A stretch of DNA of 64,000 bases, from the NCBI GenBank assembly GCA_965235115.1, contig OZ249436.1:7690001-7754000 (forward strand), written 5' to 3'. The notes below the pieces were generated by a model. It ran no database searches and was not told the DNA's origin. It saw nothing but the letters and a program-made list of their open reading frames with translations. Shown piece after piece: positions 3,665 through 64,000 of this stretch. Origin of the DNA: Laetmonice hystrix. Lineage: Eukaryota. Position numbers and translations under genes: made by a program. How positions within the stretch are numbered: position 1 is the first letter of the stretch; each line of letters starts with the position of its first letter.

Positions 3665-4326
3665 AACTGGAGATACTGGACAATATTAAGTCTGAGTTGA
3701 AGTTATTTCGAGCTGATCACTCCTACACGTAGCGGTGGCTGCCTATAACTGGAGATACTGGACAATATTAAGTCTGAGTTGAAGTTATTTCCGAGCTGAG
3801 CACTCCTACACGTAGCGGTGGCTGCCTATAACTGGAGATACTGGACAATATTAAGTCTGAGTTGAAGTTATTTCGAGCTGATCACTCCTACACGTAGCGG
3901 TGGCTGCCTATAACTGGAGATACTGGACAATATTAAGTCTGAGTTGAAGTTATTTCCGAGCTGAGCACTCCTACACGTAGCGGTGGCCGCCTATAACTGG
4001 AGATACTGGACAATATTAAGTCTGAGTTGAAGTTGTTTTCGAGCTGATCACTCCTACACGTAGCGGTGGCCGCCTATAACTGGAGATACTGGACAATATT
4101 AAGTCTGAGTTGAAGTTGTTTCCGAGCTGATCACTCCTACACGTAGCGGTGGCAGCCTATAACTGGAGATACTGGACAATATTAAGTCTGAGTTGAAGTT
4201 GTTTTCGAGCTGATCATTCCTACATGTAGCGGTGGCCGCCTATAACTGGAGATACTGGACAATATTAAGTCTGAGTTGAAGTTGTTTCCGGGCTGATCAC
4301 TCCTACACGTAGCGGTGGCCGCCTAT
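3665..4326. repeat. 82-83 bp minisatellite, 8 copies, overlapping the ACSM stop codon
   Basis: Unit aactggagatactggacaatattaagtctgagttgaag...cggtggctgcctat; the last unit's cta (4323-4325) is the ACSM TAG stop. Confidence 0.95.
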
Positions 4327-17600: not shown

Positions 17601-17664
17601 ACAGAGCCTATGTGGACACAAATCAATCATAATCTCTTGCGGGTCTAAAAATTTCCAGGTTACC
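14603..17664. mobile_element. Foldback-type non-autonomous element with about 350-bp inverted arms enclosing a G-rich satellite
   Basis: 14613-14964 is a near-identical reverse complement of 17303-17654; the arms contain TCAAGG/TCAAGGTCA multimers. No transposase ORF; outer ends are approximate. Confidence 0.85.
15141..17170. repeat. G-rich 41-bp satellite (about 39 copies, to about 16765) followed by degenerate GGGTGT/cctgcag repeats
   Basis: Unit gggactacatgactgggggtgggggttagtggggtgtgggt; extreme G/C strand skew. Confidence 0.95.
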
Positions 17665-25375: not shown

Positions 25376-25807
25376 AATTTCCATTCACTACGAAGCATTA
25401 TAGAGCTTCCTGGTGATAGTTGGACACATTGTTAAATGACAACATCCACTCATGTTTGCAAACAAATATGTATCAATATATTATATTGATACTCCACCAA
25501 TCAATTTCTGTTCATTGACTGCACGTAGAGACGATGAAGAAGCCGTTGTCCATTACTAATTGCTGTAAATGACGTTACTGTATAAAATAAAATAAAAAAG
25601 AAATGGCAATACTGTATGTTTTAACAAAATAATTTTTGGCCAAATATGGGATTCGTTTAGAAATTTAGAGTCATGCATGAGTAAAAAGAAATGTTTGATT
25701 TTTACCCCATGAATGTGTAGCCAGTTTTAGAATCATTATGTACTTGATGACACACGTACACAGAATATCTCGAGAACAATCTGTGCTCATAATTCCTGCA
25801 AACATAT

Positions 25808-26022
25808 TCTCAAAGTTTCCCTTGGATTTAAGTTTCCTTGACTTTGACACAACTCTTGATTTCTCAGAGTTTCCCTTGGATTCAAGTTTCCTTGACTTTG
25901 ACACAACTCTTGATTTCTCAAAGTTTCCCGTGGATTCAAGTTTCCTTGACTTTGACACAACTCTTGATTTCTCAAAGATTCCCTTGGATTCAAGTTTCCT
26001 TGACTTTGACACAACTCTTGAT
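25808..26022. repeat. 54-bp tandem repeat, 4 copies, spanning the MICAL-like stop codon
   Basis: Unit ttctcaaagtttcccttggattcaagtttccttgactttgacacaactcttgat; the rightmost copy encodes [10 protein letters not shown] with TGA at 25992-25990. Confidence 0.92.
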
Positions 26023-41800: not shown

Positions 41801-44800
41801 CAGCCATAGACGGGGTCTGTGACCTTGAAACATCCCTGTGTTAGGACCAGGAGTCCTCTCCTGGGTCATTCCATGTGAAATCACCCAATTTTCAGACAAA
41901 TCCCATAGTGATAGTCTTGGATTTGCTTCAAATTTTTTTGACATGTTGCCTGTGGTGCCAAATGAAAACATGCCAAGTTTACCTCATTTTCATTTATAGT
42001 TTTTTTGTTATAGGGGGTCAAAAAAGTGGGCGTGGCTCCTTTTATCGCGACAAAAATGCTGCCGACAGATTTACTCCCATCTTTAACAAACCATAGCTCA
42101 GGAGCTATCAAGGATATCAACTTGATTTTTTCAACATAGATCCTTCATCATGTACTCTCTTGTTGGCAGGTGTCAGATTAAAATTTAATCAAGTAGGAGT
42201 CAAGCAATTATCTGCTACATTTAAGCATTTTTCTGACGAAAATGAAAAATTGTCACATTTCAGATCAGCTTTCCCCCATACCTCATAGGATGAATTGAGT
42301 TTAGTTGTTTCTAAATGATACTACAACTAAAGGGCTTCCTACAGTAACAAATGCAGTTACTTAAGATCAGTAGTTTTTTGGCAAGAATAGCAGGTACCGG
42401 GTCTCAGCAGGAAAAAAACCCTATTTGGGCCCCTTTTTTGAAGATGTGGGTATCCTTCGATTTTGATAATAATTATATCATCAGAAAGCCCTTGATGTGT
42501 ACCATCAACCTACCTATTTTCATTGTTAAACTAGGACCCTTTCATCTTGAAAAAAAATATTGATTTTTAAAAATAATGACACATTTCGGACGTCATCATG
42601 CCCACCATGATCTTTCAAAGATAATACTGAAAACACATTACTATATGCCTATTTTCAGTGTGCAACTAGTACTCTTTCATTTTGAAAAAAAAAATTACTG
42701 TATTTAAAAATTTTGACATTTCGTAGGTCAGGTCTGATAGTGATACCCTGTAAAGAAAATTCCAATGCACTGCTAGATCAGCACTATTGTAGTTCATTCA
42801 TATTTCACTAGGTGGCAGGCCAATCAACAGAAACTGGCAAAAAAGTGGGAGCACATTCTAATTACAGGGTTGCCAGACAGATTCCAGATTGAAAATAGGC
42901 ATGGTGACAGTACACATCAAGGGAGCACCTTCTGATGATATAATTATTATCAAAATAATTTGCATAGGAATGTGTTTTCAGTATTATCTTTTGAAGATCA
43001 TGGTGGGCATGATGACGTTCGAAATGTGTCAATATTTTTAAAAATCAATATTTTTTTTCAAGATGAAAGGGTGCTAGTTTAACAATGAAAATAGGTAGGT
43101 TGATGGTACACATCAAGGGCTTTCTGATGATATAATTATTATCAAAATCGAAGGATACCCACATCTTCAAAAAAGGGGCCCAAATAGGGGTTTTTTCCTG
43201 CTGAGACCTGGTACCTGCTATTCTTGCCAAAAAACTACTGATCTTAAGTAACTGCATTTGTTACTGTAGGAAGCCCTTTAGTTGTACTATCATTTAAAAA
43301 CAACTAAACTCAATTCATCCTATGAGGTATGGGTGAAAAGCTGATCTGAAATGTGACGATTTTTCATTTTCGTCAGAAAAATGCTTAAATGTAGCAGATA
43401 ATTGCTTGACTCCTACTTGATTAAATTTTAATCTGACACCTGCCAACAAGAGAGTACATGATGAAGGATCTATGTTGAAAAAATCAAGTTGATATCTTTG
43501 ATAGTTCCTAAGCTATGGTTTGTTAAAGATGGGAGTAAATCTGTTGGCAGCATTTTTGTCGCGATAAAAGGAGCCACGCCCACTTTTTTGACCCCCTATT
43601 AAAAAAAAAACTATGAATGATAATGAGGTAAAACTTGGCATATTTTCATTTGGCACCGCAGGCAACATGTCAAAAAAATTTGAAGCAAATCTGAGACTAT
43701 CACTATGGGAGCCCTGGGTGATTTCACATGGAATGACCCTCCTGTCATCATCACGAACTGCAGACTTAAGCCGCTTTCACATGCATACGGTGTGCGGCGT
43801 GCGGCATGCGGCGTGCGTTTTTGTTAATAATGTAGCCAATGTAAATCGCCGCACGCCGCAAACCGGAGACATGTGAACGGTTATATCTATTTTCAGTTGT
43901 TCCATTTTTGCAAAAACGCACGCCGCACACCGCACACCGCACACCGTATGCATGTGAAAGCGGCTTAAGAGCTGTAGTATCGTGCGGGCCCCCTACATTT
44001 ACTAAGATTGGCGTCTTGCCTGATCTAGGATTTGCCTCCACTTCAATGCAGCTATGTGACAAGCTGGCGAGGTTAGGTTCCTGGTTGTCAATTTCAGAGA
44101 GACTCCGAAAACACTTATATTATATTAATGGTCTGGTACTGAGGTATTAGAATTTAGGCATTAATATTGTCACTAAGGCTCACACACACCAGGGTATCGA
44201 TTGTGATGCCAATGGTAACGCCTTAGTAAATTCCTGTACAAAGACCTCTTTTTTCACTTCATGAGTCACATCAAAGTATGGGCTGCTTTATGAACTCATC
44301 ATTTTAGCTATACATAAAATGGGCATTTCCATGAGTGAAAATAACAATCATCTAATTGGAATGACTATGGCCCTTAGCGCTCATTGACCTTTCCATGGGT
44401 GACTACTAGCAACACTATAGTGTTTCCAGTTGCCCGTGGCAACATGACGACCTGTGTGAGAGTACGATCCTGCCGGATACAAATGGCCCCCTGTCACGGA
44501 CCCCTACATAACACCGACTTGACATATTGAACTACTTACCTGGGGTCATGGAGCGGAACTTGTTATAGTACTGAGACACATACGTCACAATGCAGAGCTT
44601 GTCCGGCACTGCCATGGCAACCATGTCCTCAGCCTCCAGCAGGTCGGGAATGTCCAGCTCCTCTTTGGCGACCTCGAATGCCTGCGAGCAGAATCACCAC
44701 ATCTGATGATGAAAAAAATAGAACCAAGGCAACAACACCTTGGGCTACTGAGTGTAAGATTAAATATATATCGTACTGTCTCCGGCCTACGACAGATATA

Positions 44801-47800
44801 TGGCCTGAAGGTCATATTAAACACTCGGCTTCCTTCTGAGGCTGCACGGGGTGGGTGGGTGAGGGGTGGGTGGGGCTGGGGTGGGTCATTGTCAATAGGG
44901 TCGATAATCGGGGGAAGAGGTACCTACGGCAGGGTTTCTTGCAGGCCCTTTTGTGGGGGAGACTCCCCTACTATTCAGCTACTCCCCCAAAAAAATTTCT
45001 CGGGAGAAATATTTTGCATTACTCTCTCCCCCGCCCCCAACTCGCACCCCCCCCCCCCAAGTCGAAAATCTCCAGGAAACCCTGCATGGTCTACTTCCAT
45101 CAGAAACTTCAGAATGGAGAAAATGAAATACATTTTGAGGGGCAGTTCATATACTATGATGTGTTGGTGGTGGGTGAGGTGCGCATAGGTACACAGTGGA
45201 AGACGAGCCAGCTTTTTTACATGATGAGATGCATGGGCAGAGCCAGGAATTTTGGAGGTGGGGGGGGGTTACCTGCTACAAGGGGGGGGGGGGGGAGGAA
45301 CCTACTCCTGCCTCTGGAAACGTTTGAATCTATCAGTAATCGTCCAATTTTAAGTTAGTCTGCAGAAAGAACGTGGGGAGGTTAGAGGGGGGGGGGGCGC
45401 CTACGAGAAGGCAAACAAGTAGGTTAGCTGTACATTATTGAGTCCTCAAACAACTAAGTCAGTTTTATGAGGTGGGAAGTCAAACAAACAGGTTCGCTGT
45501 ATGACGGAAGGGAAAGTAAACAAGTAGGTCATTTATGTGGTGTGACCGACCAGCGATTATTTATGTGGTGTGACCGACCAGCCATTATAGAGTTGTACCG
45601 ATGCTGGGGAGATATCGTTGTAATCAGGCAGGATGATATATGGTCTGTTGCCTGCAGATTTATTACTGGATTGGTAGAGAATGATACGGATGTCGATTGC
45701 CACTATATTATTGTATGACCCATTATGATACTGTGGAGGATTATGGCTACTGCCATTCAATTACCACACTGACCAAGGGTACGCCAACCTATAACAATAC
45801 GGGTATGTGATATCATACACTGATCACCTGACCCTGCAGATAACCGGAATCATATGTTTTCTTACATCACGGTAATTCTGACTGACATTCCGCAGCTAAA
45901 TGTCATTCCAGCTTGCCAGGTTCAATAATCGTTGATGATCTTCTAAATGATCTCAAATGGCGGAACAGTTTTAAAACTTTCATCATCAGATAGTAATAAT
46001 GTAATAAAACAAACGGTCGTCTTAAACAGAACCATTTCATTTGAATCGCCTGGGACAGCAACTCCATAGATTTTAATGTCTTTTTACTCAACAAACCCCC
46101 CTTAATGTTTTATCTGCAGCTGCAAAGTTTCTCTTGCCCGACACAGAACACTAAATAATGCTACAGTAGGCCTTAATTCACTTACCAGTTTATTATTTTC
46201 GTAGACATTCTCTTTGGACAGGGAATCATAATCTCTGGAAAAAAAAATTATGTCTCATTAATACGATAACATAAAACAAATACGACCAGTGTCAGTGTTA
46301 GTGGTCTAATAAATTATACGCCTGCCTGATAATGCCCCTTCTGGGGTCACATGTTATAAACTGTGGTGCTACAGTAAGTTCTAAGTCGTATGACGCACAC
46401 ATTCTCAATCACAGGCAATTATTTAACAGCCTTATCAACCACCGTATCAAGGAAAATAATCATGATACTAAAAGCGGGGAAAAACAGCAAACAAGAAGAC
46501 AATAAAGAAATATCAATTCATAGTAATAAATCAGGATGAAAGAACTGGAAGTACCCCCGGTAATACTTGGGGGTACTTGCAATGAGTGAGTTGTGTAAGG
46601 ACCGTACATGAGGTTACATGTATTCTCATGTGCCAAGTACTTGCAGTGAGTGAGTTGTGTAAGGACCGTACATGTGGTTACATGTATTCTCATATGCCAA
46701 GTACTTGCAGTGAGTGAGTTGTGTAAGGACCGTACATGTGGTTATATGTATTCTCGTGTGCCAGTACTTGCAGTGAGTGAGTTGTGTAAGGACCGTACAT
46801 GTGGTTACATGTATTCTCGTGTGCCAGTACTTGCAGTGAGTGAGTTGTATAAGGACCGTACATGTGGTTACATGTATTCTCATGTGTAAGTATAACCTGA
46901 TTGGTTGATTGTCAGGTAATTGAACGTCTATTATGGGCGGTCCTGCTTAATGGCCCTGTGAACGACTGGTATTTCCATGTTAATGACAGCTCACAATCCA
47001 ATGACGGTCATTCGATCACAGTTGGGGCACGTTATGTAATGTGGCCCCATGGCAAGCTTTAACATCAACACGGAAACAAATAAAAATACCCGGACAATCA
47101 CACTGAACAATTCCTGCCCTAGGAAATGGAATTTTTCTTTTTCTTATGCAATTATATACTGGCCACAAAACATGTACGGGTAATCATCTCTTTTTTTCGT
47201 TTTCTTTAGGATTTAGTTTATCAAACCAGGATTAACAGAAGTGTTACTCCAAAAAGGTTTGTTTGTCGCGGCTGGTTAACAAAATGACCAGTTCTCATCC
47301 ATAATGCATGATGTACAAGAAAGAGTTAACCAATGCACTCCCTAGAATCCTGGTAGCAGTCTAATCAAGGAAAGATCTGATTATCCCATATCAGATCACC
47401 ACGACAAACAAAACATTGAGCCACAATTTCTACCATGCCAATCCTGCCTTTCACAATGCGGGACGACAGGAGACCTGAAGGATATACAACTACCGACCCT
47501 TTCTATGGATTAATCAGACCTTTCATAAAGTTGCAATGACTTGGCGTGTACTTTGACCCGTCTCTGCGAGGAAGTTGATGATAGCGCAGCTCCTGCCTCC
47601 GTTCTTCCAATATGTTCACCTTTCCGGCAGTACACATGACGTATACACGACCACCCCACCTTGACAGTTATTACATGTTCCCTTTACATTTATTGGCAGG
47701 CAGAAATAAAAATGGCAAGAGTCTCGCAGAGTGTGAGCAGTACAGAGTAAAGAACCTGGAGCTAATTCCAAGATGTTTTTATCGAGACTGCAGTCAGAAG

Positions 47801-50800
47801 TCTATATCGCACGGTGACCAATTCTCACGATGCGGGCAGAGGTCACCCAGCTTTGACCTCTCTGGCATACAAGTATCCCCTTTGGCTCGCCAATGCGCCG
47901 CTTTCCACAGATTCAAGGGACACACAGAAATCCATGAACCCAAGAACATGATAGTTAGACACACGGATCACGCTGACGCCTGGGCTTCAAAATAAAATAA
48001 AATTTTCAATCTAGGATTTGGACAGGGCCAGAAGTGATTTTTCTGAACAGATACCATTGAGAAATCAAAAGATGAATCATGATATGCTACATGTTTTCGG
48101 ATGAACCACGTCAGGGCTTAGTTTGAAAAAAAAATTACGATCTTGCTTAAGCTTATGCTTAAAGCTTCCGACTGGCTGCTTGCAGGAAACCCGGCTATCA
48201 GAAGATTTAAGCTTAAGTTTACGCATGACCTTAAAGTTTCAAAAACTGGGCCCTGGTGTACTGTGAAACCTTGGCGTCATCCGCCTGGATCCATACACCA
48301 TGAAACACAACCTCCGCTCGAGGCCACGGTCAGGCAGACCACCAGCCGAGGCTGGAGGCACAGACACCTCATCACTGGGTGACTGAGCCCTGACCCTGCA
48401 CTGACCGGAGGATTGGTCACGCACTGGGTACGTACGTAGGCGGTAACTGTAAGCCCACCGTACGAGGGTAGCGGCCAGACCTCATGAATAAACCTCCGTG
48501 GGCACATTTACATTAGTTCTCTACACGTAGACTCATGTCAAAAGTCTCATGTACCATAACACCTTCTTAAAGGGGCACCAGGAAGAATCGCACTTTCCAA
48601 CGGCTTTTTAAAACATAAAAAATTAGGGTGAAACCCGTTGTCTTGGCCGAGAAATGGCATAACTTCCAACGGGGTCACTTGGGGTCACGCCAGTCACTCG
48701 AAAAAGTGTACCCCTTTAAAGCAGAGTACGGTGGGAGTGTTGTTCCCAACTTCAGTTCCACTCCAAAATAACTTCCTGCCGTTCTATAATTTCCTGATAA
48801 ATTGGTTACTTTCTAGTACCCCGCTTCCTATTGTAACACAATCCGTTGACACGACATTCTCGGAGTCTGATTTAAGGATCCAACTGACGTGCGGCAGGAA
48901 CATCCGACAAGAAAATCCTTTCACTGTTTCAGGAACTATACCAGTCAAAAACAGCAACCAGAATAAATCACTAGAAAAGAAAGTCGATACTTGTACCTAA
49001 TCTTGGCCTGCAATATAAGGGACTGAAATCGATGTGGCCACGTAGAATTCTAAAGACCTCTAGGGGAAAAGTGGTTTGTGACCAACTCAAAGCACTCTAT
49101 GGGGATGAGAATGGGCGGTGGTGGGACCATGAAAGGGTTGAGGTGGCTACAGACTTACACCCCCTCCGGCAGATGGCGCTGCCCTCGGCGGTAGACATAC
49201 CGATACAGTGACCGAGACTCGGTCCAGTGATTGGTAGTCCGCCTATGGTCTCAGCCAGCGTGACTCACCCTACCATCGATACACCCCATCGTCGGAAGTT
49301 CATCTTGATAGAATTTTAATTTCCTGAATTAATAAAGATACAGATATCTAAAAATGACTTTGCTGCACTAAAAATGGCATAACTTTTGATTCGCTTGACT
49401 GATTTTGATAAAATAAAGACTGTTTTTCATGTAAGAAGATTCCCCATCAGGATCCCCGGAAACATAGATTCTTAGGTTGTGTTCATTTAAAGTCCCTTTA
49501 AGGGTATCGATTCTTAGGTTGCCTGGTTATTTTGAGAATATTTTCATCAAAATACAGACGGAATGAATGGGTTGATGTTATCCTTTACACTGATTACAAT
49601 TCACAGCATCACCACGTGAAACAGAGCAAATAATCCCTCAATAATACTGATCAGTTTTTGTGACACGCTAATCAAAATGGTGCCCCCCTACCGCATAAAC
49701 CGCTTTACCATGTTTACTACCGCCAGTAAAATTTCCCATGTCACTGATATTGAACAGCGGGAGCCTCAGGCCTGAATTATGTCAGTAATTGAAGGTGCAT
49801 TAGCGATGTTGTGAAGGTCACGTTCAAACAGCACTTGCGCCTTCATACATTTGAGGTCTCCCATCAGCATGTTATAAATTGATTATCACAAGGTTCAACG
49901 GTAAAAGGTTTGATGATTTTTTAAATCTGTCACACCGGGCCTCTGTAGTTCCTCATCCTGAAATAACACAATCACTTTCTCCTAATAGAGTTCGTGATCC
50001 AAATCAGCAGTTCGACTTGGTCAAGAATACACGATGTGCCATACGATGATACAGGGAGCTTGGGGCCCACACATGAAGCAAGGGTAACTGGTCAAGAATA
50101 CACGACGTGCCATACGATGATACAGGGAGCTTGGCGCCCACACATGAAGCAAAGGTAACTGGTCAAGAATACACGACGTGCCATACGATGATACAGGGAG
50201 CTTGGCGCCCACACATGAAGCAAGGGTAACTGGTCAAGAATACACGACGTGCCATACGATGATACAGGGAGCTTGGCGCCCACACATGAAGCAAGGGTAA
50301 CTGGTCAAGAATACACGACGTGCCGCCATACGATGATACAGGGAGCTTGGGGCCCACACATGAAGCAAGGGTAACTGGTCAAGAATACACGACTGCGTGC
50401 CATACGATGATACAGGGAGCTTGGGGCCCACACATGAAGCAAGGGTAACTGGTCAAGAATACACGACGTGCCATACGATGATACAGGGAGCTTGGGGCCC
50501 ACACATGAAGCAAGGGTAACTGGTCAAGAATACACGACGTGCCATACGATGATACAGGGAGCTTGGCGCCCACACATGAAGCAAGGGTAACTGGTCAAGA
50601 ATACACGACGTGCCATACGATGATACAGGGAGCTTGGGGCCCACACATGAAGCAAGGGTAACTGGTCAAGAATACACGACGTGCCGCCATACGATGATAC
50701 AGGGAGCTTGGGGCCCACACATGAAGCAAGGGTAACTGGTCAAGAATACACGACGTGCCGCCATACGATGATGCAGGGAGCTTGGGGCCCACACATGAAG

Positions 50801-53800
50801 CAAGGTACTGGACGAGTGGTCCGCCCAGGGCGCAGACATACCCCCCCCCCCCCTCCGCCCTCGTCATTGACGTCAGCGGTCAACTTATCGGAGTGGTCAT
50901 CTTACAGATTTTGGCCATCTCACAGCCACTTGAAGCCGAGTACACCTATACCGATACGACTCAACCAGACAACTAGGTTTTATGCCTTAAAAACTGCCCT
51001 CGACTTCATTCAACTGGACTTTTGAGGCAAAAGAAACTGTTGATTTGATTTGAGTCGAGTCGGATCGGTACGTATATAACTCCTTCCCCGTCCTTCTTCG
51101 TCCTGAGGCCTTGACACACTGGCCATCTTACAATTAGGTCAAGTGCTGCAAGTTTCTGACAATTTCACAGGCTTCGCTCTCATTTCGCAAGTCACGCAAT
51201 GCTGCACTTCCCAAAATGCGTGCTTTCATTATCTGCCTGCAGCATTATGGCCTACATTTCACCAACAATTAATTAATAAATTGTTGAAAGAGAAAATAAT
51301 AAAATTCTCCATTTTCGCATTTTCTGAGCATAATTCTTCATGCTTCATTTCGTCCTCTGGCATCAGTCTTAATTAACTGGCATTATCGAAGAAGCTGGCA
51401 ACATGGCCTTAATGTTATCCGAATAAATTACCGGGTAGATTTTTCCCTTATCCTGGCTATTGGCAGTGGGATACGTCTTCGTTTGGTTGCTGGCATATCA
51501 CCAAAAATCCTAAAGGATCCGTATGAAATCTGTGTCATGAATACCATTACCAGGTTAACTCTTGACGAATAATAATCCTATTGCTGAACTCTACAAGAAT
51601 CATATACCAACAAAACAAGTTTTTTTTTTAAATTTAAAAGTGAAGTTAAATCGGTCGACAGCCAGCGCCAGACAGGTCTTTAACATTTTCAGACTGGAGA
51701 TAAATAACCCGGTTATTTCCTTCCATATATTGTTGGCATCAGTCATATCTGACAGGCGAGCGCTTCCTGAACTGCAGACTGTGGAGCTGCCTCCATTAAA
51801 GTAAATCCGCCTGATTCCGATGATAGTCCATCCCTGGGATCACCCCCTTCCTCCTGGCCTGCTGTTTTTGTGTGCGTGTCTGGTGTTGCCTCGTCTGGAG
51901 CTAGGACGTTGATTACATCACATGGTATGTTGATCTCGAGGAGATATCAAAATGCTACCTTTCTTTTTTTGGCTCTCAGTCTCAATGTCATGCGGCTAGA
52001 CAGGGACGGCTGCACGATGCGGCATACCAACACAAACAGCCATGCTCATTAGTAACAGTATTTCAGTTGGCTAGACAATAAACGCATGACAGCACAATGC
52101 AACATCATTGTATTCATTCCATATTGTCACTCCGGTCACAGGCGAACAGGTTCTTTTACTGCTACTGCCATCATCGCTACCGCTCTCACATAACGTCAGG
52201 TTTGTTACGATTATAAGTCATAACCTGGCCGCCCCCATCGACCTATTTTACTTCACTATTCATTTCTATTTTAATTTAAGAATTGAAGAAAGACGCACAA
52301 CGACATGCAGTGCCAGTTGATGTTTCCCTTCCCTATAGCCTGGAGTCACCCCAACCTGCCCGTTCTGGTGCCCAGAGCTGGTTTTATTCCAGTGTTGGTT
52401 ATCCCCAGATCTCAAACACGTACAGACACACCACGTGATCCTACCCTATATTATTACTAAAAATGTATCTCTATTTCTAGATCCAACCCAACTTTAACCT
52501 CTAACAGCAGACCCTTTGAACAAAAAGTTCGCTATCACTGTCCCGACAAATATCTCCTACCCTGACTCCAAATTTCGTGGTTAAGTTACCATGGGGTTAT
52601 ACCCCCACAGTGCCCTTATTGAGATCAGTGACCTAGCAACATGTCATGTGTGACACGCTGGAGGTCGTGTGTCAAACACGGAGATATATACAGCCACCTC
52701 GGAGCCCGACAGTGCCTTCCCGCCCCCCGTCCCACCGGCCGCCCGCCTCCCGTCGCACCGGCCGGCCGGCCGCCAGCCTCCCGTCCCACCGGCCGCCCGC
52801 CCGCCCCCGTCCCACCGGCCGCCCGCCCGCCTCCCGTCCCACCGGCCGGCCGGCCGCCCGCCAGCCTCCCGTCCCACCGGCCGCCCGCCTTCCGTCCCAC
52901 CGGCCGGCCGCCCGCCCGCCAGCCTCCCGTCCCACCGGCCGCCCGCCCGCCTGGCGTAGTATGCGTGCCTCCCCGGGTCGGGGGGAAATAGGGCACTCAC
53001 GGACAGACACACATCACCTCACGTCATAAATAATTCTACGCAAGATCCAAGATCTAAACTGGGGTCTTAACGCTAACACCACACCGAAACAGGGGGGAAA
53101 CACCCGTGATTCCGCATCTTTCAACACTGCATAAGAACCCTTAGAAGAACTAATATTTGAAAAGGCCAAGCTTTTTTTATGGCATGCCATCGGCATGGCA
53201 ATGGGCACCAGCGAAAGTAAAGTTAGATATATTGATCAACAAAGGATGCAGTGTAGCGTGGTGAAATAGGAGAATCTGGTGTGTTTATAGGATATGAACA
53301 CGTCACCTGCTGTCTGTTTGATGTGCAAGTATTGCTGAGTGGTGATAGATGTCCCACGTCTAAGGATGTACCAGATCCTCTAACTTAGCCTGCATGTCCT
53401 GACTGCATGGATCACAGGAGTTCCAGGTAAGGATGCTACATTTGAAAGGGAGGAGGCAGGGGAAGCTGGAGAACCGTGTGTTCATCAATGGGCAAGGTTA
53501 TTCGATCAGAACGACTAAGAATAAATGGTACTATGGGGCCTGAAGCCCCCCCCCCCCCCCGCCGCAACCCAGCAACCCCCCCCCCCCTCCCCCGCCGCCA
53601 CCCCCACACCCCTTCCCCCGATTTCCCGCTCGCCATAATTCTACAGTGATCTGGAAAAACCTATATATAGTACGTTAAGTTTTTGTCCAATTTGAGTTAG
53701 TCCCATTTTTGGACTTACTAGGTTTTGCCCTTTCATATAGTCCTATACAAGTGATCAGAACTCTAGGCAATTCATAGTTCTTGACCTGGAAAAAAACTAG

Positions 53801-56800
53801 CGTTTGCAGCACCTCAATGCCAGGGATGGTTTGTTTGTCTCAGTTTTCTGAAAATGAGGGAAAGTGGACTTGCTAGGTTTTTCCCGATCACTGTAGATAT
53901 GTCCCAGATAATGTCATTTGTGCACGCTCAGCGTTACAACTCGTAACAGCTATTTATCGTGGTAGAAGAACGTGGCTGCCTCCGGACATTTACCAGAATA
54001 ACCACTAGCGGGGGGGGGGGGGGTGTCATGTCAAAGAATGAAGTCTCGGTAAGGCCGGCGTTAACAATCTGCTTATCCTGCAGGTCTCGGGCGTTTTTTT
54101 AACATTTCCCATTTACAATAAATTTTTTAACTACAGATGATTAATGCCAGGGTACATAAGAAACGAGCGTCGTCCCTCCTCCCGTCTGAGGGCGGTGGGA
54201 ACCATACTAACAGAATGCATGCCAGACATCGGATGATGTTTGAACATAGGCGTACCTTAAAGTCATTCTCCTGGCACCGATCACATCGATTTTCCTCACA
54301 CCTGCCATGAGAAGACCGCGGTGACATTCTCACAGATCGTGGAGGAGGTCGGTCTACAAAAACTGACAGGAGTGGAGGGAAACAAGAGAAACGCCGCCAT
54401 TCTGGCATGTCGCGAATCTAAGCAAAACTCGCCTTCAAAAGTTCCTTTGCCTATTGTATAAGATTGTTTTGAAACGAACTCCCTGTACATATATTGTCTC
54501 GACCTGGCCCAAGGCGGTATCATTGTTCAGTGCGGGGCGCTTATTGAACGCCACTCACACAGTCAACTTTATGGCCCTTCTCTACAACTTTATGGTAACT
54601 GTTGACACGACATGGAACATCTCCAGTATACTATCAGATTCTTCAGGCTTCCTTGTTATCATTCCATTCTGTGAGAATGTTTGAAGGTACCAACATAACT
54701 GATATGAATGACGACACTTGCAGACTGACAGACAAAAGCCTCTGATATATATATGGATCCAATAAAATGGCATGCACTGCCTCGGAGATTTGTAAGACCG
54801 GTAAATGCGTAGGTGTTTTTCACTATTCAACTGTTACTAGTACTGATTCGCTGCTTCACGTTGTGTGGAGATTTGCAGAATCAGCTAGACGGTCTTGGTG
54901 ACCCTGATTGGGTGTGACCAACACGTCATGTGACTACCGGTAATTTTCAATGAGTTTCAGTTTCATATCATCCGCGTGCGTGTGACTCGCCACATGTACT
55001 CTCCCATGTACCGCGTGCTGACATTGAGGATCTGGGACAGAGCAATATACAGGTTCCACACAGGTCGCTGCGTCCCGTGTTACATGATCTTGACCACTTT
55101 TTGACCAGGGGTAAGAATGATCCTTAGCTCCACACCTGGCTGTTCGTAAGAGGCAACGAATGGGATGAGGGCTGGTTGAGTCTTGGATCCTTCCAGTACC
55201 ATTTCTCGTACTGGCCCTCTTCAGTGCTCCGTAACTGGATCATCAAAGGCGTGTCTAAAACAAGCATGTCCAAGCTATACCTGCGCGAATGGACATAGAA
55301 CCCTGCTTTTCCAATTTTCGAAAAGAGTAGGGGATTGCCACCCGGTGGAGGGTTTCTTTCCCCCTCCGTCCTCATCACCTCCCCGGGACTCTGGAAGGAA
55401 GTTATCATGAGTGAACGAGTGTGACGGTTTTATTCTTCCTCACTCACTCTTGACCAATCTCCAGTGCCCATCTCCATGCAGCAGACAGTAACACCATACT
55501 GATGAAACCAGGCTCCTGTTTCTAAAACATGATGTCCGTAATCAGCGAGCTAATTCGTCTCTCTGCTTAGTTAACCCTAGAAATGAGTTATTTTTAACCC
55601 ACTTGGACTTTGAGGAAGAGCCTTGCTGACACAGCACCGTTCAAAGAGAGACCTATCCTATTTTTGGGAAACTCCGCTATGGAAATCACCAGGATACAGG
55701 CACGATAAACCAGTGGCTATAAACTGGTGGTGGTGGGGGTTGGGGGAGTGGGGGAGGGACGAACACTAGCCCATAGCCTCCTCCTTTTAGTCGACGAACC
55801 TACATAAAACGGTCTTACTTGACTGCCCAACCCCTTGACAGATTTTCCATTTCACTGCATTGCCCCCGACCCCATCGTACCATTCCCTTTGTGACTTTTT
55901 AAATACCTGGTCTGAACAGTTTTGGTGCCATGCTGGTTGGAGCTAGCCATCTAGACTGACCTTTGATCCCAGTCCGGACACACTGAAACCAACATTCTTG
56001 TTGGTATTGAACATATAAGTTGAAGCAAATATTGGTAGTCAGATCAGCAGTGTACCCGGTACCTTTCGAAGCTGATCTTAAATATATTACAACTTGGCAA
56101 TAGCTAAAGTATTAATACAGCAATCAAGTAAATATGCCACCACAAAAAAAACAAAAAAGAAAAGAAAAAGGAGGAAAGAAAAAAACCTGTATCTCTCACA
56201 GGTGGAAGTTCTTCCAGATAGTATTAGTAGAATGCTAGATGAGTATTGCAGTGTCATTGGCCACTCACATGAGGTCAGGACGGTATCGGTGTATCACTTA
56301 CATGAGGTCAGGACGGTATCGGTGTATCACTTACATGAGGTCAGTACGGTATCGGTGTATCACTTACATGAGGTCAGGACGGTATCGGTGTATCACTTAC
56401 ATGAGGTCAGGACGGTATCGGTGTATCACTTACATGAGGTCAGGACGGTATCGGTGTATCACTTACATGAGGTCAGGACGGTATCGGTGTATCACTTACA
56501 TGAGGTCAGGACGGTATCGGTGTATCACTTACATGAGGTCAGGACGGTATCGGTGTATCACTTACATGAGGTCAGGACGGTATCGGTGTATCACTTACAT
56601 GAGGTCAGGATGGTATCGGTGTGTCACTTACATGAGGTCGGGACGGTATCGGTGTATCACTTACATGAGGTCAGGACGGTATCGGTGTATCACTTACATG
56701 AGGTCAGGACGGTATCGGTGTATCACTTACATGAGGTCAGGACGGTATCGGTGTATCACTTACATGAGGTCAGGACGGTATCGGTGTATCACTTACATGA

Positions 56801-57041
56801 GGTCAGGACGGTATCGGTGTATCACTTACATGAGGTCAGGACGGTATCGGTGTATCACTTACATGAGGTCAGGACGGTATCGGTGTATCACTTACATGAG
56901 GTCAGGACGGTATCGGTGTATCATGGCGCAGAATGCGAGCCCACTCTTCCAGGACGACGTCATGTTGGTGACGTTGACGTCCCGGTAACCCTCCACCTGC
57001 GCCTTGCACCATTGTTGTAACGCTTTCACCTTATGAGCCAT
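25990..57041 (-). CDS. MICALL1: MICAL-like protein (MICALL1/2 family): CH domain, half-LIM, Pro/Ser-rich linker, bMERB coiled coil; 10 coding exons, about 1488 aa
   Basis: Exons (minus): 57041-56896 ([13 protein letters not shown]...[24 protein letters not shown]), 46234-46186 ([16 protein letters not shown]), 44681-44540 ([42 protein letters not shown]), 39920-39808, 36142-32735 (3408 nt), 32566-32449, 30303-30127 ([22 protein letters not shown]...[13 protein letters not shown]), 29829-29715, 29310-29264, 26141-25990. They total 4467 nt in frame. CH + LIM + bMERB without a monooxygenase domain defines MICAL-like. An acceptor at 57084 implies an upstream non-coding exon. Confidence 0.9.
26510..26701. 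mobile_element. Short hAT-like MITE; second family member at 44930-45084
   Basis: TIRs cagggtttgccgcagg / cctgcaggaaaccctg; the related copy has cagggtttcttgcagg / tccaggaaaccctg. Confidence 0.55.
26705..27650. repeat. About 94-bp minisatellite, 10 copies, in the last MICAL-like intron
   Basis: Unit ctgatccagagtagtgatattctacatggtctacactgtgataactcaatcactaagtacccagcaaccagttcattgagtaagtataggctca. Confidence 0.95.
29154..29263 (-). CDS. Candidate alternative C-terminus of MICAL-like by intron read-through (Trp/Cys-cluster tail)
   Basis: Frame stays open past donor G|GTATGA at 29263: [36 protein letters not shown]. Confidence 0.4.
32300..32448 (-). CDS. Candidate alternative C-terminus of MICAL-like by intron read-through (tail-anchor transmembrane helix)
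   Basis: Frame stays open past donor G|GTATGA at 32448: [49 protein letters not shown]. Confidence 0.5.
40770..41370. repeat. 102-bp minisatellite, about 6 copies
   Basis: Unit aaccactcatctacagccttccgggagcaacctaataatatctatggcactactcgggctcactccaat...gacatcactgatca; it explains the repetitive ORF at 40813-41415. Confidence 0.95.
41863..43739. mobile_element. Non-autonomous DNA transposon with about 775-bp inverted arms, GGG...CCC termini and 4-bp TSD TCCT (Sola2-like signature)
   Basis: tcct|gggtcattccatgtgaaatcaccca ... tgggtgatttcacatggaatgaccc|tcct; arms 41863-42639 and 42969-43739 are near-identical inverted copies (mirror ORFs 42351-42563 + and 43045-43257 -). Confidence 0.9.
43770..43964. 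mobile_element. Palindromic MITE flanked by TTAA, Harbinger-like termini
   Basis: ttaa|gccgctttcacatgcatacggtgtgcgg ... ccgcacaccgtatgcatgtgaaagcggc|ttaa. The superfamily is uncertain because the TSD reading is ambiguous. Confidence 0.85.
46573..46886. repeat. 63-64 bp minisatellite, 5 copies
   Basis: Unit gtacttgcagtgagtgagttgtgtaaggaccgtacatgtggttacatgtattctcgtgtgcca. Confidence 0.95.
50017..50806. repeat. 71-74 bp minisatellite, 11 copies
   Basis: Unit ctggtcaagaatacacgacgtgccatacgatgatacagggagcttggggcccacacatgaagcaagggtaa. Confidence 0.95.
52715..52952. repeat. GC-rich degenerate tandem repeat
   Basis: Variable-length units built on ccgtcccaccggccgcccgcc; source of several overlapping Pro/Arg/Gly-rich ORFs. 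Confidence 0.85.
53644..53893. mobile_element. Tc1/mariner-type MITE with TA TSD
   Basis: ta|cagtgatctggaaaaaccta ... taggtttttcccgatcactg|ta. Confidence 0.8.
55125..55400 (+). mobile_element. Nin/Deu-domain SINE remnant
   Basis: catagaaccctgcttttccaattttcgaaaagagtagggg...gggtttctttcc resembles the conserved Nin/Deu SINE central domain (recognised from memory, not searched). Confidence 0.4.
56263..56922. repeat. 33-bp minisatellite made of the end of MICAL-like coding exon 1 plus its splice donor; 20 donor copies
   Basis: Unit tcacttacatgaggtcaggacggtatcggtgta, which reads ...CCTGACCTCAT|GTAAGTG on the minus strand. Donors recur every 33 nt from 56895 to 56268; the last one is GTGAGT. Confidence 0.96.
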
Positions 57042-57434
57042 GGTGAGTCTGGCAGGCGACGTTCACTTCACATGTTTGGTATCCTGAAACCGGCAACATC
57101 ACAGTTAGTCAATAATCGCAATATTCTCACCATCTCTATAAGGTAGAAGTGTCATGTGTTACTATTCTTTTATCATTGTCAGCTCGGTCATAGGCTTTCG
57201 TCTGCTCCACTATAATCATTGACATCAAAAACATGTCTTCTGTGTAAGCTGAGATGGTCTAAGTTATTCAAGCGTTTTCATCCGGTAGACCTGTCTGTGG
57301 TCTACTCTAGCGACAGCCCCACCCTGCAGTACAGGTAACACATACCGGTAGTAACAAAGTCCCGTACAGTCAGAGTGAAACTGACTGAGCATCTGTCATT
57401 ACCAGGGAGTTTAGCTCCATTTGGGTTGGAATTG

Positions 57435-58247
57435 GGATTTGAATTGAGGTTTTATGCCTTCACAATAGCCAGGGTCACATCACGGCGGCCAGTTTTACTG
57501 GTAGAGAAAACCGGCATAACCGGTGAAAACCACCGACCTTACAGCAGGTAACTGACAAACTGTCTCATATAAACCACCGACCTTACAGCAGGCAACTGAC
57601 AAACTCTCTCATATAAACCACCGACCTTACAGCAGGTAACTGACAAACTGTCTCATATAAGCCACCGACCTTACAGCAGGTAACTGACAAACTGTCTCAT
57701 ATAATAAACCACCGACCTTACAGCAGGCAACTGACAAACTCTCTCATATAAACCACCGACCTTACAGCAGGTAACTGACCTTACAGCAGGTAACTGACAA
57801 ACTGTCTCATATAAACCACCGACCTTACAGCAGGTAACTGACAAACTGTCTCATATAAACCACCGACCTTACAGCAGGTAACTGACAAACTGTCTCATAT
57901 AAGCCACCGACCTTACAGCAGGTAACTGACAAACTCTCTCATATAAACCACCGACCTTACAGCAGGTAACTGACAAACTCTCTCATATAAACCACCGACC
58001 TTACAGCAGGTAACTGACAAACTGTCTCATATAATTATAAACCACCGACCTTACAGCAGGTAACTGACAAACTATCTCATATAAACCACCGACCTTACAG
58101 CAGGTAACTGACAAACTGTCTCATATAAACCACCGACCTTACAGCAGGTAACTGACAAACCTTCTCACATCTGGCTCAAAGGGGAATCGATGGCGAAAGG
58201 CCCCGTGGTCACGAGCCGGAGGATTAGACCACTGACTGAGACGCCCC
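57435..58247 (-). mobile_element. Meta/MESC-type tRNA-derived SINE with its core amplified into a 44-bp array (about 14 copies, 57527-58168)
   Basis: Minus strand reads a tRNA-like head GGGGCGTCTCAGTCAGTGGTCTAA, core GTTTGTCAGTTACCTGCTGTAAGGTCGGTGGTTTTCACCGGTTATGCCGGTTTTCTCTACCAGTAAAACTGGCCGCCGTGATGTGAC, and tail GGCATAAAACCTCAATTCAAATC. Confidence 0.7.
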
Positions 58248-60720
58248 AGGTCCATTTGGGAGACGCTCTCTTTAACTCCATCTCCCTTCCCCATGTTGGC
58301 AACTTACACACAACTTAAGTGACTTCTAGGTACATACAAATAAATTGAGAGCTTTATGATATTTACTGATATTATGATAAACATTCGCAAAGAAACAAGC
58401 CACATTCCTGACAAATCCTCCATACCTACTTATAGCAACTGCCAACACTGATACATAATGTCCGTTTGATCCCAGCTAACTGTGAGTAACAAACAGAGAA
58501 TGGGCACCCCGCCATCATTATACCAGGACATGGCATATATAGGGCCTATAGCATTGTCAACCGTAACGGAACCAAGATATTTAGGGCAACGCATGGTAGA
58601 TACGCTCCCTGGCCTTTCACTGGCCTATAACAGGTTAAATGGGCCACAACTGGTGCTAACAGTTCACCCCCTCACTATATATCACGACCTCAAAAATATA
58701 GAATCAAGCACTACCATTTACGGTTTGATAAGTAACTTATGGTAGGTGTCTTTCAATGATGTTACATTCTTTGTTCAGGATAAATTGTGCATGGAGCCCT
58801 GCGCCTGCTCTGCAGCACCTAGCGGATACAGGGCACCAGTTCCAATGTCAGTTCACCTGTACTGATGATATCAGATGGAGGCCTTGCTATAAACAGCTCC
58901 AAGTCGGGAATTTCATACAGATTCCTGACAGTGTACAACTTCCGCCACTTCCAGCTACACATAGCATCATTCTTCTCGGTGACAGAACTCACACATCTCA
59001 GATGTCTGAGTTCATACTCATACATACCGGTATATAAGGTCAATACTATACCAGTGATTACAAAGGTTTTACTTTTAGTCTAGTATCTATAATATATCTG
59101 TCTAACGGCAGAAAATAACAAATTCATACATTTACTACAGCAAAAGGATCTAATAGCGCCATTTCAGAATTTTTACATTCCGTATTTTAAACTTAACGTT
59201 TCTGATTGGTTCGTCTACTTAGGCCAGCCAATCAGAGCAAGATATTTACGAACTCTTCCCAGAAGCATTAAGTTTGAACAAGATAGTTTTATCAGACCTG
59301 GCACAGGCCTTGGTCTAAAATCCTTGCGGTTAGGTATGCGACCCTTTCGTGTCCACCGCTCATGAGACTCACAAATCAGGTTAATCCCTTCAAGACCAAC
59401 GTCCAAAGTACAGAATAAATCCACGTCTTTGAGTGGTTTGGGCGCCTTTAGAAAGTCCAAGTTGATTAAGTGAATCAGAGTCCGTTAACTGAACCAAGCT
59501 TCAAGTATACGACGGTTAACTACGCATACCATAACCTCACAGATGTGGTTAGATGGACTAGGGTATATCGTCCACTCTCATTGAACTTCTCGCAATGATA
59601 AATGGACAGGAGGCTTAATATCCGTGTACCATATTTGCTAACCATCTCTCGACTTACAAAGTTAGGACTCCTTTCAGTATCCTAAACATAACCTACACGC
59701 CAGTTGAACAAGTCTGCCTCGGTCAATCTATACAGTTGTACTTGGAACAATTACAGATAAGTACTCTTACCCGGTAGTCCTACTTCTCGACTATCACATG
59801 AAACAGACACACGATCTGACAGCAGACGTAATTTTGAACAGACCAACGACAACCCATCCCGGGGTAGTCCGAGAGGCTCTGACCTATCTAACGATTGGAG
59901 GGCACCGGAGTGGGATAGAGTGTCAGGAGTGCCATTTATACTTTTATACTTTACAAATGTTTAAGGGCATATTGTTCATTACACTAACCGCATACATACC
60001 AGTATCCTTTAAGTAATGTTTCATGTTTAAAACAACCAAATACTCGCACACACCTAACTAGAAGGACATATTATTATACAAGAGCATCTCGATCTAATCA
60101 CGGGGCGGGCAGCTATAACTCGATGTATCTCTAGCGCAGAACGAATTTCCAGATCTTAAGTTCGTAAAAATCTGTGCAGAACTCAAAGTATAGAGTCTAC
60201 TGTTTGATAACAAAACCTCAAGTCAAGGTTCTGTACTGCGCCTACAGTGACCATAAAGCGCCACAACCTAACGCCAAATTACAGTTGGCGAGTGTTAAGG
60301 TCTACGTTTTCCATGATTCCCGACCATACAGATCTACATGTCAATGATATGCCCTAATTACACGGCCTAGTTGTAAAGTGGTATGGTCTAATGTAATATT
60401 ATGTTACCAATGATGACTCTGGGAATATACGATTGTTTGTGACCTATTGAAAATGTACCCCCAGGATAATCTATAAGTCGGAAGCCCTAATGATATATAC
60501 AATTATAAACCACCTAACGTTGCTGACCGTTCGGATCAGCTGTCTAGACAAAAGCGAAGGTCAAGATGAAGGCCTCCGGCTGGGAGTACGGTTAGGAACA
60601 TCTCCCGATGTTTTCACAATAACCTTGACGACATGCCCAGACTTCTCTATCGATTCCAGGATTTTATTGGCTGATCTTAGGCTTTGGGACTTGTCTGCGA
60701 CAATCTATGGCTCGTTATAT

Positions 60721-62649
60721 GGGCCATTTTCACAGAAACGTGCCAGTAACGGTGAAGACAATTAAAAAATAAAACTTATTTTGTTTTTGGCCAAAGACAG
60801 GTGAATCCCTCTCCTTTCAATGATATATAAGATTCTACGGAGCTGCAACACTGGAAACTGCAAATTTTTCATAAAGATTGAAAATTAAGTTTTACACGGA
60901 TGTCTTTACCGTTACCATAGTAACAGGAAAGACAGGTGTGTCTTTACCGTTACCATGAAAAGTTAACAAACTTTAGTAGGCCTAGAAGGGAGGTCAAATG
61001 AAACAACTATGAGGTTATTCTGACCTGTTAGAGGTAATATAATACTGTGTCAAGTTGATTGATGCCAAGGCTTTGCATTGAAACAGTAAGAAACTTAACA
61101 TGTAACGTAACCAGTAACGGTAAAGGGATGTCTTTACCGTTACTGAATAACGGTAAAGACATGTCTTTACCGTTACTCTCATTACCTGGATAAAATATTA
61201 ACTACTAACTTCATGAATATTATAAAACTTTTTTATTTAAACACAAATAGGTAAAAGGAATAATCATAACAGGACTCCCTGAATGATTAAAAATTAATAG
61301 AAGGAGCATACTGGCATAATATCGCCTGCATGACCCTCATCATTTCTGCTTTTGATTTAGGTTTTGAACCACCGGCACGAGGGCATCCTGGATAACTTTA
61401 ATCTGGAAAAGATAGGAAATTTAAAAGTTACACCATGTGATATTTTATATTTTGTTATAATTTTTTTTTACAACATATACATTTCTTATAATTTCAGAAA
61501 TACAATGACGATGAATAAGTTGTTTACACCTGGAGATGGGAATACTAACTTTTAAAAATTATCATTTAGCATTTGATAATGATAAACCTCCAAATAAGTG
61601 GAATCATAGCCTAGAAAATTAGTCAGAATTACTTTCTAACAATCCTGTTGGTCTACTCATTTAACATTTTTAGCACATGGAAAAGACCTAAATTCTAAAG
61701 TTCTGAATCAATTTGCCCTTTGACCTTGAAAATTTTTGTTAATGTGCCTTTATCAGTCCACCAGTGTTTTCCAAGATCATACACTGATCCAGAGTCCAGC
61801 AATGTTAAAAAAAAATCTGGATTATATTAATTATGTCTTCACCGTTACCATCTTGTCTCTGCCGTTACCTCTGAAAGGTAATGGTAAAGACAAATTTCAG
61901 TAACGGTAAAGACACCTTTTGAATTCTACAAAATGACTTTTTGCCATGTGCCCCCTAAATTTCTGTTCAGATAAGGACAATAAAACCTGTTTAATTGATA
62001 AATGTTTGTTACAAAGATTCTATGAGTTTTCATACATTTATTGATGGTAACGGTAAAGACGATTAATTAATGAGACATAATAGATTACGTAAACTTACCT
62101 GACAGATTCTTACAACAGTTTAAAACATAAGTTTGACTTTGAAGACAATATGGCTTCCTTATATCCTGGTCTTGTTCTGTGTACTGTAGCAGTACCATCT
62201 GTTGAGTTTAGGTGAAGTTATCTTGTAGCTTGTTGTTTATGGTAACGGTAAAGACATGGGTCTTTCAAAACTCCGGCCAAAGTATCCATGGCAGCAAAAT
62301 TATGCAATAATCGCAAGAGAGTAATAAATATTCCTTTTCGTGAAGGCATAAGTAATTGTTATTATGGAAACAGAGATTATAGTTCCACCAATAAAGCCAA
62401 TTGCGACATTGCAAAGGTTTTGTAATGGAGGTTCCACTTTTGCCAGGTAACGGTATGGACATTTTTGCCATGTTAATATCTGGCATTTGTGTTTGGTATA
62501 GCAACGAACTATAAAACAATTTTCTTTTTAGTGGAAAAGTCATTTTTTATTAATTTCTCCCCCAAAAATTATGTTATGATGCTTCAGTTGACCAAAAAAG
62601 GCATGGACACTTATTACTTATAATGTGCACACTTTGCTGAAAATGGCCC
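60721..62649. mobile_element. Non-autonomous DNA transposon with GGG...CCC termini and 4-bp TSD ATAT (Sola2-like), inserted in a 39-bp satellite
   Basis: ctcgttatat|gggccattttca ... tgaaaatggccc|atatcattggg; removing the element and one ATAT restores the satellite junction ctcgttatatcattggg. The interior carries roughly a dozen gtaacggtaaagac/gtctttaccgttac motifs in both orientations. Confidence 0.88.
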
Positions 62650-63548
62650 ATATCATTGGGACTTGTCTGCGACAATCTATGGCTCGTTATATCATTGGGA
62701 CTTGTCTGCGACAATCTATGGCTCGTTATATCATTGGGACTTGTCTGCGACAATCTATGGCTCGTTATATCATTGGGACTTGTCTGCGACAATCTATGGC
62801 TCGTTATATCATTGGGACTTGTCTGCGACAATCTATGGCTCGTTATATCATTGGGACTTGTCTGCGACAATCTATGGCTCGTTATATCATTGGGACTTGT
62901 CTGCGACAATCTATGGCTCGTTATATCATTGGGACTTGTCTGCGACAATCTATGGCTCGTTATATCATTGGGACTTGTCTGCGACATCTATGGCTCGTTA
63001 TATCATTGGGACTTGTCTGCGACATCTATGGCTCGTTATATCATTGGGACTTGTCTGCGACATCTATGGCTCGTTATATCATTGGGACTTGTCTGCGACA
63101 TCTATGGCTCGTTATATCATTGGGACTTGTCTGCGACATCTATGGCTCGTTATATCATTGGGACTTGTCTGCGACATCTATGGCTCGTTATATCATTGGG
63201 ACTTGTCTGCGACAATCTATGGCTCGTTATATCATTATTGGGACTTGTCTGCGACATCTATGGCTCGTTATATCATTGGGACTTGTCTGCGACAATCTAT
63301 GGCTCGTTATATCATTGGGACTTGTCTGCGACATCTATGGCTCGTTATATCATTGGGACTTGTCTGCGACAATCTATGGCTCGTTATATCATTGGGACTT
63401 GTCTGCGACAATCTATGGCTCGTTATATCATTATTGGGACTTGTCTGCGACATCTATGGCTCGTTATATCATTGGGACTTGTCTGCGACATCTATGGCTC
63501 GTTATATCATTGGGACTTGTCTGCGACAATCTATGGCTCGTTATATCA
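62650..63548. repeat. 38-39 bp minisatellite, about 23 copies, with one stranded unit at 60684-60720
   Basis: Unit atcattgggacttgtctgcgacaatctatggctcgttat. Confidence 0.96.
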
Positions 63549-64000
63549 CTGTTCCATAATACTACAGACTGACTGATCATTTAGGATCAGAACTAAACTC
63601 TCTGGAGATATTCTGTACTGCTAATAACCGGATATATATGAAAATCATTCATTACATTCCGCCACATTCCGGTAAACACGTTTTGACGATGCCTTAATAA
63701 TAAGTGAGCCAGAATGATCAATACGCGCCCATTTGACATGAATTAGTATTTGCTAATGCGTTATCATATGAACTTGATAAAGCGAGATTAGGGCCTGGCT
63801 ATAAACACCTTGACTGATTCCAAACTGGACCACATCTTTCATATTTGCCGAAACAGTAAATCTTTCTAACATTCACACAATATAAACACATTTATCAGTA
63901 ACTTATCTGGATATGAACCTAGCCGCACACATGATCACTGAACATTATCAGACTGGAATGATTAATAATATTGTAATCTATTTTAACCATCTGGATAAAG

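Follow-up and report, generated by a model that had tools for sequence, protein, structure and literature searches.

On the reverse strand of the 64,000 nt stretch of Laetmonice hystrix DNA analysed here (the window), the donor end of the first coding exon of a MICAL-like gene is repeated 20 times in tandem. The repeat is a junction-spanning minisatellite of the type described from intron 7 of the human F7 gene (F7-IVS7) and from the mirages of lancelets, whose defining features it shares as far as these were testable, and it is most likely a tolerated, neutral by-product of a minisatellite-rich genome. The MICAL-like host gene is intact, and in one contig it is correctly spliced at the authentic, most upstream donor. 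The gene and the array consist of the following parts:

25,990–57,041, minus strand: whole MICAL-like gene model, ten coding exons, 1,489 aa, a single terminal stop (model, Pfam and tblastn)
57,042–57,083, minus strand: probable 5′-untranslated exon part, proposed from sequence only, with a candidate acceptor (TTTCAG/G) at 57,083
56,896–57,041, minus strand: first coding exon, 48 codons and 2 further nt, encoding the N-terminal portion of the CH domain (Pfam and protein matches)
56,263–56,922, minus strand: minisatellite, 20 units of 33 bp, the unit being the last 27 nt of the exon plus the donor hexamer
56,890–56,895, minus strand: first donor, CAT/GTAAGT, the one used (a contig of public run X4 runs into exon 2)
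56,263–56,268, minus strand: last donor copy, GTGAGT in unit 20 (G at 56,268), followed by unique intron (unit listing)
46,235–56,895, minus strand: intron 1, 10,661 nt, phase 2 (gene model; junction position conserved in relatives)
46,186–46,234, minus strand: coding exon 2, 49 nt (tblastn with the Capitella protein; joined to exon 1 in the X4 contig)

The coding sequence begins with an ATG at nt 57,041, and the last 27 nt of the first coding exon are unit 1 of the array. Pfam recognises a CH domain (PF00307) on exons 1 (E = 2.4e-11) and 3, and a bMERB domain (PF12130, E = 2.7e-18) near the C-terminus, in the exon at nt 30,301–30,128. MICAL-like proteins carry a LIM domain after the CH domain; no Pfam family was found on the large exon of the gene at an E-value of 0.01, and a Cys/His stretch aligns (tblastn) with its counterpart in the MICAL-like proteins of Capitella and oyster. 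Five relatives matched this large exon. Exon 1 matched eight proteins, the best named of which was CAPTEDRAFT_229206 of Capitella teleta (90% identity), which points to a probable annelid host, and showed 79% identity to two oyster MICAL-like 2 proteins. The ATG follows 42 nt after the candidate acceptor, which, if real, would make the first coding exon an internal exon of 188 nt.

The array is a head-to-tail minisatellite, the unit of which holds the exon end and the splice signal of a real, conserved junction. Tandem Repeats Finder gave a period of 33 with 20.1 copies and 98% matches (nt 56,262–56,923), and together with the unit listing this bears out the earlier note, which had described 20 units of 33 bp made up of the last exon codons and a donor. 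The donor hexamer GTAAGT is present in units 1–19, the first G being at nt 56,895 and the spacing 33 nt. Matches to the exonic 27-mer numbered 20 in the window (17 exact, three with 1–2 mismatches) and none in 100 shuffles. Private changes mark units 9, 10, 18 and 20, and a 2-nt TG microhomology bounds the array on both sides (nt 56,923–56,922 and 56,263–56,262). The unit has a donor but lacks a plausible acceptor; it has no pyrimidine tract, its junction is AT/GT and it contains an in-frame stop. The array does not correspond to an intron gained through the tandem duplication of a proto-splice site, as it lies inside a pre-existing, conserved intron. A coding role of the repeat was rejected, since the exon frame and both other frames of the unit carry stops. 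On the opposite strand the unit is stop-free, and the long ORFs found there are repeats of it. An Rfam search over nt 46,000–64,000 returned no matches.

The array was sought in four public runs (X1–X4), which derive from one sample and none of which is on record as RNA; all four were compared over nt 56,857–57,520, which comprises exon 1, the upstream region and the first two units. A 63-nt contig made up of the unit alone was present in X1, X2 and X3 at depths of 577, 721 and 588, and the neighbouring flank contigs of these runs had depths of 39–90. Depending on the yardstick contig, the unit is thus 8–24 times as deep as its flank, where the assembled allele alone predicts 16.2, although depth is not copy number. 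In X2, a loose end of a contig passes from a unit straight into the unique intron beyond the last donor copy. The array is therefore multi-copy in the genome and more than a product of the assembler, while the count of 20 rests on the assembly, of which these runs may be the source. That the genome really carries one donor and the array arose in assembly is extremely improbable: the four runs represent one sample and, as the possible assembly source, would be non-independent, but a unit-only contig requires a unit-to-unit junction, it occurs in three of the four runs at far more than flank depth, and the private changes likewise speak against an artefact. The earlier note had allowed for reads showing a single donor; the assembled contigs examined from X1–X3 contain the unit contig instead.

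Evidence on donor choice comes from X4, which was taken as RNA-like because its one contig is spliced and no flank is covered. This record, the only one of the run on the compared stretch, is 151 nt long (depth 7.7), matches nt 56,896–57,004 and then continues into 40 loose letters, the 30 shown being the start of exon 2 at nt 46,234. It starts at 57,004, short of the candidate 5′-untranslated part. Because the contig extends without a break into unique exon sequence, the junction 56,896 to 46,234 is unambiguously that of the first donor, in agreement with the expectation of the earlier note that proper splicing must take this site. The contig documents presence only, since rare forms of a splicing ladder drop out of contigs and decay may hide mis-spliced ones.

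The reading frame is consistent with this choice. Splicing at donor 1 leaves the CH frame open, whereas the three later donors that were computed (2, 3 and 20) lead to a product ending in PDLM and a stop after 49 aa. Since the stop sits within donor 1 itself, truncation applies to all 19 later donors, and the earlier claim that they cut the CH domain at about 49 aa holds. Its companion statement, that only the first donor avoids a stop, is true of this locus but unremarkable, as was seen in relatives. Exon 1 was aligned with four relatives, which yielded 76 loci in metagenome contigs with 63–88% identity. At the equivalent junction, 70 of these have AT/GT, and the other six run on without an intron. 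Reading past the donor meets an immediate stop in 60 of the 70 single-donor loci (47 of 53 distinct ones), which is normal because any phase-2 GTRA donor gives it. A second copy of the exon end was absent from all 76 loci over up to 1,500 nt, and no tandem array lies over the donor in the 70 loci with an intron, 50 of which have at least 700 nt downstream; as these are distant relatives and metagenome assemblies may collapse arrays, the absence is weak evidence. At donor position +3, 41 of the 70 loci have A and 24 have G. The earlier note had taken the GTGAGT copy for the ancestral junction. The original intron flank is indeed retained beside the last unit, but a single A/G change in either direction fits, and the relatives, which carry both letters, agree with either ancestry.

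The description of the donors as strong also stands in part. The intronic hexamer of donor 1 follows the consensus, whereas a T occupies position −1. Its U1 duplex energy, crudely estimated, is −6.3 kcal/mol; of 23 other donors scored in the two main gene models, 16 have a stronger one, so a middling U1 affinity is predicted. Three units folded together gave −7.9 kcal/mol for 99 nt, a weak fold, scored without a shuffle control. Structural masking was discarded as the reason for the use of donor 1, given this fold and a downstream context common to the first 19 donors.

The earlier note also saw the array as a dense U1 snRNP landing pad. In that reading the 19 spare donors would recruit U1 snRNP where the 10.7-kb intron begins and, as in telescripting, would protect against premature cleavage or raise transcription. 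The intron is indeed long and the array stands at its 5′ end, and in complex E two separate 5′ sites with 174 nt between them can both be occupied by a U1 snRNP, according to the part of PMC3413131 available; the same text suggests steric interference between close U1 snRNPs. One donor suffices in relatives, the predicted affinity is middling, and similar arrays occur in introns of less than 1 kb and at an acceptor in the neighbouring gene, where such a role would be senseless. No result obtained here supports this role, which is very improbable.

The reading of a tolerated, neutral minisatellite entails the following course of events. A 33-bp stretch bounded by the TG microhomology would have been duplicated by slippage or unequal exchange, and the near-identity of the units suggests subsequent amplification and homogenisation to 20 copies, with the edge copy left differing, just as homogenisation bypassed the edge unit in lancelet BflGb6 (PMC3087553, as far as its available text goes). 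With the first donor in use, as in the one contig, the other 19 units would leave with intron 1 and the protein would be unchanged, comparable to lancelet mirages, which leave splicing undisturbed in the accessible portions of PMC3087553 and PMC3902484. Mammalian experiments suggest that donor 1 may win by position, being transcribed first and nearest to the upstream exon signals, so that upstream-first selection or exon definition would be the basis of the choice. Any leak to later donors would give a stop at codon 50 with eight junctions downstream, and such transcripts would probably be substrates for decay. The decay of mis-spliced forms is a general phenomenon. Junction arrays may persist where the copy beside the exon body still defines the exon. 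Use of the first donor is not automatic: where two strong human 5′ sites competed, both in vitro and in HeLa cells, splicing favoured the intron-proximal one, which lies downstream, and this preference rose beyond about 30 nt of separation to near 100% at 45 nt or more (PMC3413131, in the text available), and units two apart in the present array are 66 nt apart.

A regulatory alternative is that the array acts as a copy-number rheostat, in which some transcripts, in a proportion that would grow with unit number, use later donors and are then destroyed, so that the number of units tunes the level of MICAL-like protein. The later donors are identical in local sequence and all lead to the stop at codon 50. 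In human 6-16 and CBS, two later pseudo-sites are employed besides the first (PMC1557585, available portion). The unit depth in X1–X3, 8–24 times the flank against 16 expected, would fit a shorter second allele, bearing in mind that depth is not copy number and that the runs are of one sample. The sole X4 record, however, takes donor 1, conservation of the array is not seen among the 76 related loci, and in F7 later sites with an improved U1 match (consensus value up to 91) stayed unused (same portion of PMC1557585). This alternative is unlikely. If it were true, junction arrays would be natural, heritable expression tuners, that is, length-variable dosage switches, and a test bed for the choice of the spliceosome among 20 identical donors.

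Elsewhere in the window, two further junction arrays, which the earlier note on the MICAL-like array had missed, lie in a neighbouring gene:

4909–5476, minus strand: sister donor array, eight copies of exon end plus donor, of which the intact model takes the first (5418)
6059–6453, minus strand: sister acceptor array, five copies of intron end plus exon start (6428 to 6059), of which the last (6059) alone leads on into the remaining exon

The model of this gene has 16 exons and is intact with the first donor and the last acceptor. One exon carries an AMP-binding match (E = 1.6e-5, below the curated cut-off), and the gene is presumably acyl-CoA-synthetase-like, as we have labelled it. The use of the first donor and the last acceptor fits exon definition better than one-way scanning, the acceptor case being based on reading frame and not on RNA. 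A 44-bp array at nt 57,527–58,167 was considered as a second donor array and rejected, as contigs from many other places match beside it and have unit-like ends; it may be a piece of a dispersed repeat, which is not proven.

To place these arrays in context, 60 Tandem Repeats Finder rows were merged by overlap and 15 arrays with a period of at least 33 and about at least three copies were kept by hand, a set that leaves out two-copy duplications, microsatellites and two degenerate G/C-rich tracts. The 15 arrays occupy 10,052 of the 64,000 nt, making the window 16% minisatellite. Splice sites are covered by three of them, against 1.17 expected (P = 0.10 for at least three), when one unit per array is placed randomly in the collapsed window; this null drew on 66 splice sites in four gene models, of which the third is approximate (not stop-free) and contributed boundary positions only. 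Arrays thus cover splice sites about as often as chance. When stop codons are included as boundaries, four or five of the 15 arrays touch one (P = 0.028 or 0.005). This count was made post hoc; it is a hint of non-random placement and speaks against the neutral reading. It is also a ground for supposing that the lineage preferentially duplicates splice junctions, for example through transcription- or splicing-coupled DNA lesions, as three junction arrays and two stop-codon arrays then share one window. Splice sites alone give no more than the P of 0.10, and ten of the 15 arrays touch no coding boundary, and two arrays appear to derive from mobile-element sequence or its flanks. This directed form of mutation is decidedly unlikely.

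The architecture has been published before, a point omitted from the earlier note (PMC1557585 and PMC3087553, in the parts available). The best comparison is human F7 intron 7, where the architecture of a 37-bp VNTR was experimentally dissected (Borensztajn et al. 2006, PMC1557585); the available text of that paper also names arrays in 6-16 (25 pseudo-sites), CBS (15–20 repeats), LAMIN B2 and PDGF. As in F7, the first unit spans the exon-intron border, identical donor copies follow the true donor at a spacing of 33–37 nt, and the most upstream donor is used (here from one contig). Unlike F7, with 5–9 units of 4 exonic and 33 intronic bases, the present array has 20 units of 27 exonic and 6 intronic bases and its host is an invertebrate. 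Exclusive use of the first site and length polymorphism are features of F7, set here beside one contig and one sample. Lancelet mirages are known in Adh3 and the globins BflGb6 and BflGb9 (PMC3087553) and in PGBD5 and troponin C (PMC3902484), as given in the available text of these papers. They resemble the present arrays in the tandem duplication of an exon-intron boundary on the donor or acceptor side, in the occurrence of several per genome region, in near-identical inner units with a divergent edge unit, and in that normal mRNA is still made; the host here is probably an annelid and not a cephalochordate. Tandem-repeat intron gain and gene remodelling (PMC3087553 and PMC2812944, again as far as available) likewise involve tandem copies with splice signals inside a gene, but neither a new intron nor a coding change is seen here. 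A literature search for annelid cases listed no paper that, by title or abstract start, deals with such arrays, which is weak evidence that annelid cases are unpublished.

As a single case the array matters little, since both its architecture and its splicing outcome have been published for human F7 and lancelets, and it would matter more only if unit number altered expression. It is of modest value as a natural example outside the chordates in which the most upstream among many identical donors is chosen, and it is notable for its unusually exon-rich unit and its 20 copies. Taken with the adjacent donor and acceptor arrays, it allows exon definition to be tested symmetrically against simple 5′-to-3′ scanning.

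In the acyl-CoA-synthetase-like gene (a neighbouring 16-exon model on the minus strand, provisionally named, its AMP-binding match below the curated cut-off), tandem arrays were found at a donor, an acceptor and the stop codon, and an array also lies at the stop codon of the MICAL-like gene.

Arrays and array-free genes (window positions)
4909–5476, minus strand: donor array, exon end plus GTTAGT donor in 8 copies, unit length 58–82 nt
6059–6453, minus strand: acceptor array of the acyl-CoA-synthetase-like gene, 5 copies
3665–4326, minus strand: 83 bp x 8 array, beginning at the stop codon and overlapping that of the acyl-CoA-synthetase-like gene by 4 nt
25807–26022, minus strand: 54 bp x 4 array, beginning at the stop codon of the MICAL-like gene and containing that codon together with the 10 before it
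9378–10446: 64 bp x 16.6 array, starting 13 nt downstream of a donor
17854–20379, plus strand: small 8-exon gene, array-free
969–601, minus strand: first two exons of a gene extending past the window start, array-free

In the intact gene model, the first copy of the donor array is the one used. At the acceptor array only the last of the five copies is continued by the exon; ahead of this copy lies a longer stretch of upstream intron that has been duplicated again. The same model requires a GC-AG intron at 4550 (minus strand, AAG|GCTAGT). The 64 bp x 16.6 array nearly fills its intron, accounting for 1,069 of 1,156 nt.

Elements with inverted repeats are also present.

Inverted-repeat elements and a bordering array
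60717–62653: 1.9-kb element, inverted ends of 27 nt, a short motif in many internal copies
62650–63548: 39 bp x 23 array, bordering the 1.9-kb element on one side
41863–43739: fold-back element, long inverted arms (97%)
14607–17660: fold-back element, long inverted arms (97%), with a G-rich 41-bp array inside

On its other side the 1.9-kb element has one further partial copy of the 39-bp unit (near 60685–60720); it is as if the flank next to the insertion had been amplified.

A high-copy dispersed repeat adjoins the 44-bp array (57527–58167; region 57448–58167), and at 57478–57500 its contig depths, which are not a copy number, add up to more than 2,000. Ends resembling the 44-bp unit were found on contigs from elsewhere, and the array may be an amplified portion of this repeat.

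Around MICAL-like exon 1 (57020–57408), runs X1 and X3, two of four public runs of one sample that were examined as contigs, carry five substitutions and a 23-nt insertion relative to the window, and the sample is therefore heterozygous there. The junction-spanning 33-bp array of this exon, assembled with 20 units, may differ in unit number on the second allele.
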